Shown here: positions 1 to 3,000 of the stretch, piece by piece
Numbering within the stretch: position 1 is the first letter of the stretch
Layout: each line of letters starts with the position of its first letter
Origin: a plasmid
Strand: one strand, 5' to 3'
DNA length: 6,078 nt
Sequence record: NZ_CP061624.1
Made by a program: the position numbers

Positions 1-3000
1 CACATAGAGTCCTACAGGTTCGCATGCACCTCACTCGGGGCGGAAAAGGTTGAGGTCTTGCGTGCCGCTTTCAGGTCGCGATATGCGGCCTAACAATTCG
101 TCCAAGCCGACGCCGCTTTGCGGCGCGGCTTAACTCAGGTGTTAGGAAACACTGCTACCGTTATCGGATTTACTGCTTTACTACTAACCTTGTTAATTCA
201 ACATTTGCAAAATAGTCTGACCTTTCGATTGTTTGGGGTGAAATTCTTATCTTAAAAATCTAAATATTCTTTTAGATCTAATGCAGATTGCTCGATAAAA
301 TCGTATGTATTAATACAACGACAGTAAATAAATTTTGTTAAAACCTCTAAATCATTTTCTAGATTACGGTTAAAAATAATCGGTTCATGATGAGCAATCC
401 TGTTTCTTAATTCACGTAATTGATCTGTCCAATCGTAAAAAATTTGCCTGTTTTCAACTGTTGCATTAGGAAAAATAGAATTAAAACATCCCTGCCAAAT
501 ACGTTCTTCATAATTAGCCATAAGCATCTTTTGCCAGAATACAAATTTAAGCTCAGGGATCATTTTACTAGGCGAATCTGGGAACTTCTCTTTAGCACTA
601 TCAAACATACTTTTAGGGCTATACCTCCCTCTACGGCTAAGGCTTCGAATAAAAGCTTCATTTTCATGCCAACTATTTGTTTCATTACACCTAAAAGATA
701 TTTCTATTGCCTGAACAACAGCATTTCTCAGAACAACTTCAAAATAATTTAATAAGTAAAAAAACTTATTGGAAATTATTAAATTACGTTCATAAAGCAT
801 CAATACATCAGATTTTTCATATGGTTCACCTTTATCTTTATAGAAATTTTCATACTTAGATAAGCGTGGTATAGATAAAGCCTGCTCTATCTTAAGCACT
901 GCATCATTTGACAATTCCACCGTATATACCCTAATATATAGTTGTAAGTTTGAGAGACTGCGGATCTAAGATCTTCCCTCCCAAGCGCTAAGATTCAAAA
1001 AAGCCTTTCATTAACGTGAAAGGCTTTTTTCTTTTTTTGGTCAATTAAAAGCTTACATATTGATTGTAATTGAAATATTTTCTTGAGGGACATCAAAATA
1101 ATTAGCTAATAGTCTCTTAGCTTCAGGAATAGATATTTTATCCAGTGTTTTAGAAGAATTATCTTCATTTAATTTGGTAAATTTCAGCTCATTCAAATCG
1201 ATATTCATCTCTTCTAATGAACTATAAGAAACTGGATTCCGATTACCATCCCACATATTGGGAATAGATATATCAGCATATTCGGAGATATTTATTATCC
1301 ATCTACCATCTGCATCTTCTTCTTGAGATTGGCTGATACTAGATATTTTGCCAACTAAAAATGCAGTGTGATGATCAGCCTCTGGTTCTCCCCAAGATTG
1401 TTTCCTATTTTGCACACAAACTAGATAATCGCACTTTCCTGCATTATGAGCATTTAGTCTCCAAGACTGACTACCACCTTCTTTTAAAATTCTAGTCTTT
1501 CCACGAGCAGTTAGTACTACTACACAGTTATTATTCATAACACCACCAAAATATATAAACAAGCCTATACTACATTCAATATAGCTAAATTTAAACATTA
1601 GTACAAGCTAATACTAAGAAATAAACACCAACATACTAGAAAATAATTACATCCCAAAATCCATACCTCGATCTTGCTTAGGTCGAGGTTTTTCTATCTC
1701 TTGTTTACGCTCATTCATCTGGACGAGATTTTTTTCAATATCTCGGATGTTTCGAGCAAATTCTGCTGCGCTTTGGCTACTTCTGACGAGACAGAATGCT
1801 GTGTGGTTGAGATTCTCTCCAGAATTTCTTCGTTGTTGGCTGTGATAAGGCTCATCTCTCGGACTTTGCCATTGATCTGCTCGGTATAGCTTGCTGTACT
1901 TCGTTCTAGCTCGTGAAATTGCTTCTGCATTGTCGCTAATGATTTCTGTGCTTGCTGTAAGCTTTGCTGATCGCTCTTGATTGTCTTTGATTGTGCTGAC
2001 AAGGCTTGGATAATTTTGGTTTGCATTGTGTCTAAAGCTTGCTGTTGCTTCTGCAATTGCACTTGTTGTTGCATTAATTGTTGCTGTTGTTCTTCGATGA
2101 TTCTCAATAATTGTGTTTCTAATTCGGTCATCGTTTAATACCCCATTGGAATCATGTAGCCGTTCTGCCATTCGCCTGCGTTCTTGTTGATCTGAATACA
2201 TAGGCGCTGTGCTTTGCTGTCTGGTCGCTTGCATGTGCTGATCGTCAAACTGCCTCCCGATCGGTTCAAATGGTCGACCCTCATTTGCTTCTCGTTGATC
2301 ACGGTATTTAGCGTCTGCATCTCGCTGTACTTGTTTTTGGTGACGAGACCAAGCGAGAAAATTGCTATAAGCAAAATAACTGCTACTGAAATCAGTCCCA
2401 TATTCAAAGTGGTAAGTTTTTTCTGTACCGCTTGATTCTGGGCTTGTTGTTCTTGGCTCTGTATTTGCTCGTTTAATTGCGTTAAATGGCTCAATTTCGA
2501 TTGCAGCAAGGTTTGATACAGGCTTAACTGCTTCTCGACCGTCTGGGCGTTGTTTTGAATGCTCTGGGCTATTTTCTCGTCCGACTGTTGGATAGCGGTC
2601 GCAGTGATATTGGCTCTTATGTTCAAGCTGTCTCTGATAGTCTGTGACGTTTGTTCGATACCGCTCAGAAGTTGTTCCTCTGTATTCTTCAATTCGTTGT
2701 TGTACTTCTTGTCTATATTCGCCAGTAGCTCTAAAGCCTTGCTCATAAATCTCGCCCTCTAAACGGATGGGACGTTTTGCGCCCTCATATGGGTTTTCAA
2801 TGGATATGGAGTTTTTTACTTGTCGAGTGACATTGATTTGATTCGATTCAAGCCATTGCACCAATTCTTGCCGATCGGCAACATCACCATTGGCAACCGC
2901 TCGGTAAACACGTTGATGTAACTGCGCTTTAAAATCCTTAATATCTTTGGGTAGGTTCTTTTTATTTAAAAATAGCTGTCGATGCTCAGGATCATCGGGG

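Follow-up and report, generated by a model that had tools for sequence, protein, structure and literature searches.

Two probable nested genes in the mbeB/mbeD arrangement inside the mobA relaxase gene of a pRAY*-type Acinetobacter plasmid

We analyzed a 6,078-nucleotide (nt) stretch of plasmid DNA (sequence record NZ_CP061624.1; hereafter, the window), with attention to the relaxase gene mobA and to two open reading frames (ORFs) that lie inside it in another frame. The window matches complete 6.06- to 6.08-kb Acinetobacter plasmids over its whole length, with 99.7 to 99.8% identity to CP033564 and CP033529 and 98.9% identity to pRAY*-v1 (NC_019311). Since this identity to pRAY-type records runs from end to end, the window is a pRAY*-type plasmid carrying aadB. 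Its mobilization operon has the order oriT-mobC-mobA, like that of ColE1. The pRAY backbone has been given as mobC-mobA only (PMC6160057, PMC5559437, PMC7693717, PMC7031236), and its MobA has been classed as MOBP5/MOB_HEN, akin to ColE1 MbeA (PMC6160057). An earlier reading made from the DNA alone (the sequence-only reading) had called the two inner ORFs unannotated, and the RefSeq annotation of pRAY*-v1 indeed lists just a relaxase and MobC here; mobB, mobD, mbeB, and mbeD go unmentioned in the open-access pRAY and Acinetobacter plasmid papers that were searchable, which are the four cited above. The mobilization region, all on the minus strand, contains the following features (aa, amino acids).

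3451..3858 (-), mobC, an MbeC-type relaxosome accessory gene, overlapping the start of mobA by 11 nt
1647..3461 (-), mobA, 604 aa, a MOB_HEN (MOBP5) relaxase; codons 239-581 are dual-coding with the two nested genes
2755..2759 (-), GAGGG, a Shine-Dalgarno-like site 8 nt upstream of the ORF203 ATG at 2746
2135..2746 (-), ORF203, mbeB-like, 203 aa, +1 frame of mobA, offset 715 nt (1 mod 3)
2342..2398 (-), transmembrane segment of the MbeB-like protein, aa 117-135, GLISVAVILLIAIFSLGLV
2138..2257 (-), C-terminal domain of the MbeB-like protein, aa 164-203, with invariant G164, G165, C172, R181, L182, C183, P200, and Y203
2129..2144 (-), coupling junction: GGGG (2141..2144), TAT, TAA stop (2135..2137), ACG, ATG (2129..2131)
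1715..2131 (-), ORF138, in the mbeD position, 138 aa, +1 frame of mobA, offset 1330 nt (1 mod 3)
1647..1714 (-), MobA-only tail downstream of the nested genes, ending ...KQDRGMDFGM

The mobC product matches the Pfam families MobC (3.4e-9) and NikA-like (3.2e-7) and bears the RefSeq label mobC. MobA aligns over residues 1 to 470 with the NCBIfam model relax_MbeA_E1 (expect value E = 5e-84) at 283 bits, under the ColE1-specific cutoff of 500, and its relaxase domain has Y19 in CLDYLLG together with motif III (H97QD...E111-L-N113). The ORF list confirmed the coordinates and shared frame of the two inner ORFs, which lie end to end in mobA as had been described; two frames are in use over the distal 57% of the gene, and 1.03 kb of DNA specifies three proteins. 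Both of the Shine-Dalgarno sequences assigned to them are present at 8 and 9 nt before the ATG codons, the second being the GGGG at 2141..2144 ahead of the ORF138 ATG at 2131, and their separation by TAA-ACG-ATG can be read directly. The GAGGG site is doubly constrained, since it also encodes the conserved L-E/K-G of MobA, and it has a purine-rich counterpart in most relatives (AAGGAG in ColE1, AAGGGGG in Aeromonas, and GGAGAGG in pD36-1; weak in L021). Fifteen of the 17 members of the pRAY family defined below, the Acinetobacter plasmids L031 and L032, and Aeromonas all have a stop, a 3-nt spacer, and then ATG; L010, L024, and L021 have junction variants, and the ColE1 spacer is 6 nt. The description of this setting as AT-rich did not hold, the stretch being 42 to 45% GC and not especially AT-rich. 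Operon transcription was assumed because a promoter scan, which is weak evidence, detected nothing promoter-like within mobA on the minus strand. A hairpin with a 10-bp stem (ACCTCGATCT...AGGTCGAGGT) lies at 1665..1689, within the last mobA codons, and is followed by a T-run on the plus strand; it is terminator-like for transcription antisense to mobA.

We put at roughly 85% the probability that mobA carries two nested, selected genes, one for a 203-aa MbeB homologue and one for a 138-aa all-helical protein in the mbeD slot. Over the 348 mobA codons from 234 to 581, a single stop occurs in the +1 frame, compared with 32 in the +2 frame. Redrawing synonymous mobA codons from the plasmid's own usage produced a mean of 10.7 stops in the +1 frame (P = 5e-5 for one or fewer), and shuffling the order of mobA codons gave P = 0.002 for the same outcome. 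Furthermore, the 194 substitutions that separate the window from L028 in the overlap have created no new +1-frame stop, the conserved one alone being present. When 194 changes were simulated by random placement with the same codon-position distribution, keeping mobA open by per-site rejection, the +1 frame contained a mean of 9.6 stops including the conserved one (about 8.6 new) and never as few as one (P < 0.001). Resampling, shuffling, and the substitution test thus agree with the initial judgment that two alternate-frame ORFs of about 200 and 140 codons are unlikely by chance.

The relatives were 16 further full-length sequences from plasmid and genome collections, with MobA identities of 73 to 98%, making 17 family members with the window. 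Their alignment is gapless across the overlap, and the +1 frame is open at exactly codons 234-441 and 442-581 in all members but L007, that is, in the window, L001, L005, L006, L008-L011, L013, L023-L025, and L027-L030. ORF138 is intact in 17/17 members and ORF203 in 16/17, both counts including the window. In L007, a contig of A. lwoffii VE192-9, codon 64 of the MbeB-like gene (mobA +1-frame codon 301) has gone from CAA to TAA through a single C-to-T change, which replaces Ser by Leu in MobA and leaves mobA and the second nested ORF intact. In the N-terminal, nonoverlapping part of mobA, the nucleotide diversity of the three codon positions (1/2/3) is 0.086/0.029/0.253. It is 0.183/0.101/0.093 in the ORF203 overlap and 0.178/0.096/0.099 in the ORF138 overlap, and the normal wobble comes back in the 22-codon tail after the nested genes (0.21/0.17/0.40). 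Synonymous positions of mobA are therefore suppressed about 2.6-fold in the overlap, where the most variable position is the third position of the nested frame. The two comparisons that the sequence-only reading had proposed thus came out in its favor: alternate frames are open in the pRAY family, L021, L031, L032, Aeromonas, and ColE1, and mobA third-position diversity falls from 0.25 to 0.09-0.10 in the overlap.

Selection was quantified as omega, a conditional ratio of amino-acid-changing to silent substitutions classed per frame (an analogue of dN/dS), over seven roughly independent sister pairs; such pairwise estimates ignore recombination or mosaicism and tree structure. In the nested frame, omega was 0.19 for ORF203 (P = 3e-24) and 0.37 for ORF138 (P = 1.5e-9), with an excess of nested-synonymous changes across both ORFs (binomial P = 7e-30), while the mobA frame of the overlap gave 0.46 to 0.66. 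The +1 frame of the N-terminal region, used as a control, gave 0.82 to 1.2, and mobA itself 0.12 to 0.25 there. Omega was below 1 in every nested subsegment and significantly so in 5/7, including the segments without a ColE1 counterpart (aa 59-110 of the MbeB-like protein, 0.28; aa 78-138 of ORF138, 0.31, P = 1e-10); the nonsignificant ones were the transmembrane segment (0.52, P = 0.08) and aa 31-77 of ORF138 (0.70, P = 0.14). Both nested frames are conserved and under purifying selection stronger than that on the overlapping MobA. Despite the pairwise nature of the estimates, we do not expect this conclusion to change, as the effect sizes in these alignments are large. Larger A. lwoffii plasmids also hold decayed copies of a pRAY-type mobilization module, namely L036 (CP077372) and L026 (pAVAci14, MK978162). 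The former has an intact 138-aa ORF at 2729..3145, labeled "hypothetical protein" (WP_216986655.1), next to truncated copies of mobA and the MbeB-like gene, and in pAVAci14 MobA is cut to 533 aa.

By its alignments, ORF203 is an MbeB homologue. In BLASTP it matches the protein of L031 end to end (8e-14), with 55 gap columns that fall mostly in one block of the N-terminal helix, and the RefSeq-annotated Aeromonas MbeB (3e-13), the C-terminus being the best-conserved part (40% identity). Aligned as families with hhalign, the ORF203 and MbeB profiles match with a probability of 99.0% (E = 3.9e-18; columns 5-207 versus 1-151, with a gap of about 48 residues), and at the database level tblastn matched annotated MbeB genes at E of about 1e-4. 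A search of PDB sequences with the MbeB-like profile returned no meaningful relative. The L031 and L032 proteins pass Pfam MbeB_N at 50 to 64 bits, and together with ColE1 and Aeromonas the range is 50 to 79 bits against a cutoff of 22. ORF203 is predicted to have a long helix at its N terminus, a single transmembrane helix, and, at its C terminus, a beta-hairpin containing two invariant Cys. Its single hydrophobic segment (aa 117-135; Kyte-Doolittle maximum of 2.82 over 19 residues) aligns with that of the ColE1, Aeromonas, and Acinetobacter MbeB proteins and lies strongly hydrophobic inside a long predicted helix, in keeping with the coiled-coil protein with a single transmembrane helix that had been proposed. 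AlphaFold is confident for the N-terminal helix only, with a pLDDT (predicted local distance difference test score) of 40 to 57 past residue 130; it puts C172 and C183 on adjacent strands with low confidence, and consequently the Cys-hairpin is tentative. Omega over aa 141-203 is 0.17 (P = 5e-18), and the protein ends in ...IPMGY.

The position of the gene is as well conserved as its product. ORF203 starts at mobA codon 238/239, inside the conserved MobA motif IRLxGxxYEQxF, and its counterparts start at codon 229 in ColE1, Aeromonas, L031, and L032. From ColE1 to pRAY, the start site tAT-GAG-CAa encodes Tyr-Glu-Gln in MobA, and its +1 frame, ATG-AGC-AAx, encodes Met-Ser-Lys/Asn. Likewise, the junction ...(I/V)P(M/K)GY*-nnn-ATG-ACC-GAA-TTA is kept from Aeromonas to pRAY, and the +1-frame peptides predicted from the sequence include ...AGEWQNGYMIPMGY and MTELETQLLR. 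Judged from these aligned sites, the start codon and the stop/restart junction are positionally homologous to those of ColE1-family plasmids.

ORF138 lies directly downstream of the mbeB-like gene, in the same frame and inside mobA. It begins MTELETQLLRIIEEQQQQ, where MbeD proteins have MTELE(K/R/T)HLL(N/E)ALE, and the N-terminal motif MTELExxLLxxLE at its start (MTELETQLLRIIEE) is invariant or nearly so in the family. The protein is 20% glutamine, has no hydrophobic or transmembrane segment, and is modeled by AlphaFold as one continuous helix of the coiled-coil type (aa 3-137, pLDDT 96). Alignment to two MbeD alignments with hhalign reached probabilities of 87.8% (E = 3.3e-6) and 85.6% (E = 5.6e-6), in each case across just 27 columns, and BLASTP gave E = 0.005 against the Aeromonas MbeD (aa 1-59) and no significant match to the 102-aa MbeD of L031. 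A homologue search with the 102-aa Acinetobacter MbeD built a good PF04899 alignment, and its profile match to ORF138 still covered 27 residues. Proteins in the mbeD slot increase in length from 77 aa in ColE1 and Aeromonas through 102 aa in L031 and L032, whose proteins pass Pfam MbeD_MobD, and 138 aa in pRAY to 156 aa in L021. It is thus probable that ORF138 is the mbeD counterpart, although it is not filed as a family member by the criteria of the family itself.

This locus is a divergent, enlarged, and so far unannotated case of the well-known ColE1 arrangement and not a new biological principle. In the annotation of ColE1 (NC_001371), a MobC-family gene is followed by MbeB (2868..3386) and MbeD (3393..3626), in one frame and 6 nt apart, and an ORF scan of this locus (L004) places them in the +1 frame of the relaxase ORF. 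Aeromonas plasmids (L034, L035) have annotated MbeB and MbeD genes with a stop plus 3 nt between them, and the other Acinetobacter MOB_HEN plasmids L021, L031, and L032 have the same nested pair, unannotated. The mbeB/mbeD architecture seen in the sequence-only reading is borne out by this shared layout of two ORFs in the same frame, with a spacer of 3 to 6 nt, at the homologous place in ColE1 and Aeromonas; its suggestion that the genes are mobB/mobD-like stands for ORF203 through homology to MbeB and for ORF138 through position and a 27-residue motif, not a family-level match. In ColE1-family mobilization regions, mobB and mobD are described as lying wholly inside mobA, with MbeB a relaxosome component and MbeD putatively involved in entry exclusion (PMC5935869), an arrangement for which the reference list of PMC3447787 goes back to Boyd et al. 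(1989).

The ColE1 module (MOB_HEN/MOBP5; also mobA/mobB/mobD of ColA, ColK, pCS36-4CPA, and pHW66) and pRAY have in common the mobC(mbeC)-mobA order, two end-to-end +1-frame genes in the relaxase gene of which the first starts at the conserved Tyr-Glu-Gln after the relaxase domain, and a stop/restart within 3 to 6 nt. In both, the first protein has an MS(K/N)xL start and one transmembrane helix, and the second has an (M/V)TELExxLL start and is helical. They differ in the length of MbeB (203 aa in pRAY, 172 in ColE1, and 138 to 152 in Aeromonas and Acinetobacter), in that of the mbeD-slot protein (138 aa versus 77 in ColE1), and in the share of the relaxase gene that is overlapped (57% versus 49%). 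Moreover, the pRAY nested proteins fail PF04837, PF04899, and NF033829, ColE1 MbeB is without the Cys pair and the PxGY C-terminus of the Acinetobacter and Aeromonas forms, and pRAY has Acinetobacter hosts and the known helper pA297-3, not an IncF/I/P plasmid. The closest sequence bridge to pRAY is formed by p4_010052 (L031), pALWEK1.9 (L032), and the Aeromonas/Klebsiella plasmids L034 and L035, which share with it a near-identical MbeB end, ...C..(R)LC....G....(M)(I/V)P(M/K)GY*, and the TAA-nnn-ATG-ACC-GAA-TTA junction. Their nested proteins are shorter (144 to 152 and 77 to 102 aa) and pass Pfam MbeB_N and MbeD_MobD, and their MobA is 32 to 41% identical to that of pRAY. In RSF1010/R1162 (MOBQ), mobB is nested out of frame in mobA. 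These plasmids, with a different relaxase family and a single small nested accessory gene, resemble pRAY in outline, and homology is not claimed. The MobB of R1162 is needed for the type IV transport signals of its relaxase, according to Parker and Meyer (2007) as given in PMC3912908.

Could the ORFs instead be noncoding by-products of an A-rich, T-poor mobA coding strand that happens to have few alternate-frame stops? In favor of such a view, the coding strand has just 18% T in the overlap versus 28% in the N-terminal part, and 6% of codon-order shuffles still left 207 or more consecutive codons open. T-poverty helps; however, composition is insufficient for the openness of the +1 frame because the +2 frame of the same stretch has those 32 stops, and synonymous resampling (P = 5e-5) does not reproduce it either. 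The relatives have diverged enough to be informative (18% nucleotide divergence), with up to 194 substitutions accepted without a new stop (P < 0.001), and over that divergence the wobble periodicity tracks the nested frame and the nested omega stays at 0.19 to 0.37 against about 1 in the control. Homology of ORF203 to annotated MbeB stands equally against it. We find this explanation scarcely credible; dual coding more likely produced the shortage of T than resulted from it. The converse, also raised in the sequence-only reading, is that the C-terminus of MobA is artefactual, the relaxase ending near residue 240-300 with only the nested frame translated downstream. Here, MobA-frame omega is about 0.8 to 1.2 over aa 59-203 of the MbeB-like and aa 31-77 of the MbeD-like protein, corresponding to MobA residues ~297-520 (window ~1900..2570); identity in the overlap is 63 to 79% for MobA versus 72 to 92% for the nested proteins, and the region is rich in R/A/S/E/Q/T, all of which speak for an artefact. 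Nevertheless, with the nested proteins fixed and their synonymous codons redrawn, the mobA frame acquired a mean of 31.7 stops (minimum, 18), and none is observed in the window or in any of the 16 full-length relatives (P < 5e-5). The mobA frame is therefore actively kept open and the stretch is truly dual-coding. Omega for mobA over the whole overlap is also below 1 (P = 6e-4), with 0.26 and 0.54 to 0.60 at its two ends; the tail after the overlap has normal wobble and a DRGM(D/N)FGM-type end in most of the 17 family members (variants in L006, L007, L009, L011, and L029); the MbeA model aligns as far as residue 470; and the ColE1, Aeromonas, and other Acinetobacter relaxases are full-length as well. 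An artefactual C-terminus is very unlikely on these grounds. Similar basic-Gly-hydrophobic MobA ends are seen in L031, L032, and Aeromonas.

For the second gene, two other explanations were weighed. A sequencing error at the stop in 2135..2137, or readthrough of it, would join the ORFs into one protein of about 343 aa, and proteins of 343 and 349 aa do exist in the metagenome protein database. Examined as candidate MbeB-MbeD fusions, these were rejected as frameshift chimeras from indel-rich assemblies, since they switch from the MbeB-like frame into the MobA frame. The stop itself is kept in every relative, namely in 17/17 family members, L021, L031, L032, Aeromonas, and ColE1, always with a start codon 0 to 6 nt after it, and MbeB and MbeD are annotated separately elsewhere; a fused protein can for practical purposes be dismissed. 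Rather more weight is due to the possibility that ORF138 is a real gene but a lineage-specific coiled-coil that replaced or overwrote mbeD, keeping only its first few codons. Similarity does end after 27 residues, BLASTP to the 102-aa Acinetobacter MbeD is not significant, the profile search reached no PF04899 member, and ORF138 is twice the canonical length; the shared N-terminal codons also overlap the conserved MobA G(V/L)LxDDRIR and could be passively preserved. Loss of detectable similarity is nonetheless expected of a true counterpart, because coiled-coil sequences diverge fast. The slot, frame, and coupling junction are the same, the lengths are graded (77/102/138/156 aa), and all of these proteins are predicted to be helical or coiled-coil and rich in Q/E/L, which makes replacement rather improbable and descent from mbeD the better account. 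Many of the metagenome proteins matched by the nested ORFs are frame-switching chimeras of the kind described, namely P0009, P0035, P0065, P0044, P0055, P0042, P0151, P0158, P0167, P0171, P0174, and P0178, and the names "SbcCD ATPase subunit," "YoxC," and "EnvC" on the chimera sources are spurious coiled-coil labels.

It is important to consider the observations that weigh against the presence of an mbeB/mbeD pair in mobA. ORF203 has no match to Pfam MbeB_N (PF04837) at E ≤ 0.1; given its end-to-end homology, we take it as an MbeB homologue too divergent for the Pfam model. As aligned, ColE1 MbeB is without the Cys pair and PxGY end, and thus the C-terminal domain is not universal in the family. 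The nonsense codon of L007 may mean that the mbeB-like gene is dispensable or may be a draft error. ORF138 has no Pfam PF04899 match and scores E = 0.27 and 11.6 bits against the NCBIfam model for MbeD (NF033829; cutoff of 60), with its aa 1-54 matched to positions 1-54 of the model; its similarity to MbeD is, in the alignments obtained, limited to 27 residues. A HMMER profile search of 1.84 billion proteins with the ORF138 family returned 21 matches, all belonging to its own family or to MobA-frame chimeras and none to PF04899. Finally, for the pRAY lineage we infer translation, coupling, topology, and function from sequence and from analogy with ColE1.

Under the nested-gene reading, a messenger RNA starting upstream of mobC would be translated in frame 0 to give MobA, and ribosomes initiating independently at the GAGGG-ATG would produce the MbeB-like protein. 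Termination at the TAA followed by reinitiation 3 nt further on, across TAA-ACG-ATG, would then give the second protein. The MbeB-like protein, with its predicted long cytoplasmic-type helix, transmembrane helix, and small C-terminal domain containing the Cys pair, may tether or present the relaxosome at the inner membrane and help to pass the MobA-DNA complex to the transfer machinery of a helper plasmid. A C172-C183 disulfide, if formed, would imply a periplasmic C-terminal domain, although the model in question is of low confidence. The MbeD-like protein may serve mobilization, entry exclusion, or both; PMC2831885 cites Yamada (1995) for entry exclusion by ColE1 mbeD. In mobilization by pA297-3, wild-type pRAY is cotransferred in about 88% of transconjugants (PMC6160057). 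In the only functional experiment, the derivative pRAY-delta1, described as being without mobA and mobC, was not mobilized (PMC6160057); it must also have lost the nested genes, because both lie wholly inside mobA, and the roles of the genes are not separable in it.

The near-neutral middle of MobA suggests, from its pattern of substitutions, a linker in which the embedded genes set most of the sequence. One may go further, tentatively, and suppose that ~1 kb of DNA is constrained mainly by these genes rather than by the relaxase, that the middle of MobA is perhaps a disordered tether presenting the C-terminal tail, and that the pRAY enlargements (~50 residues in the MbeB helix and ~60 in the mbeD-slot protein) became fixed simultaneously in the two frames; this we consider possible but doubtful. 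The DRGMxFGM tail of MobA could be a transfer signal. If the dominant-constraint idea were true, the pRAY family would be a tractable natural case for asking which frame of the overlap came first (overprinting), and it would suit the question of whether enlarged MbeB and MbeD proteins tune specificity for Acinetobacter-only helpers such as pA297-3.

The significance of the nested pair is in annotation and experimental design for a clinically relevant plasmid family and is not conceptually new. Plasmids of the pRAY type spread aadB, which confers gentamicin/tobramycin resistance, in clinical Acinetobacter, and the nested genes provide this group with a candidate entry-exclusion factor and a candidate membrane accessory factor. 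Any mutation in the distal 57% of mobA, engineered or natural, affects two proteins at once. The case also exposes an annotation blind spot, in which gene callers suppress nested ORFs and the thresholds of family hidden Markov models miss divergent members. Consequently, the nested proteins reach the databases only as "hypothetical protein" or misnamed, when mobA happens to be truncated.

The remainder of the window contains four further features.

5638..6078 and 1..93 (+), aadB (ANT(2'')-Ia) cassette, wrapping the window ends; coordinates taken from the 1089-nt offset to NC_019311
252..920 (-), Abi_2 protein; HEPN-family matches weak and subthreshold
1053..1598 (-), 181-aa ORF without a Pfam or NCBIfam match
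4861..5547 (+), pentapeptide-repeat protein; GC fraction very low here (0.26-0.29)

The ORF list has no entry for aadB because the cassette spans the window ends; its GC fraction is 0.53 to 0.62 versus 0.26 to 0.45 in the backbone. The pRAY plasmid is described as lacking a rep gene, with ColE1-like replication proposed for it (PMC6160057). An Rfam scan of the whole window yielded no family reaching threshold, and thus no ColE1-type RNAI/RNAII was recognized in it. Near-identical pRAY-type mobilization modules occur in records labeled Achromobacter, Streptomyces, Ancylomarina, and Brucella and in metagenome-assembled genomes labeled Flavobacteriales, Chlamydiae, and Gudongella (loci L006, L010, L011, L015, L016, L019, L020, and L030; protein P0076). 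These odd host labels probably reflect contamination or misbinning of a small high-copy plasmid, or possibly a wide mobilization range.

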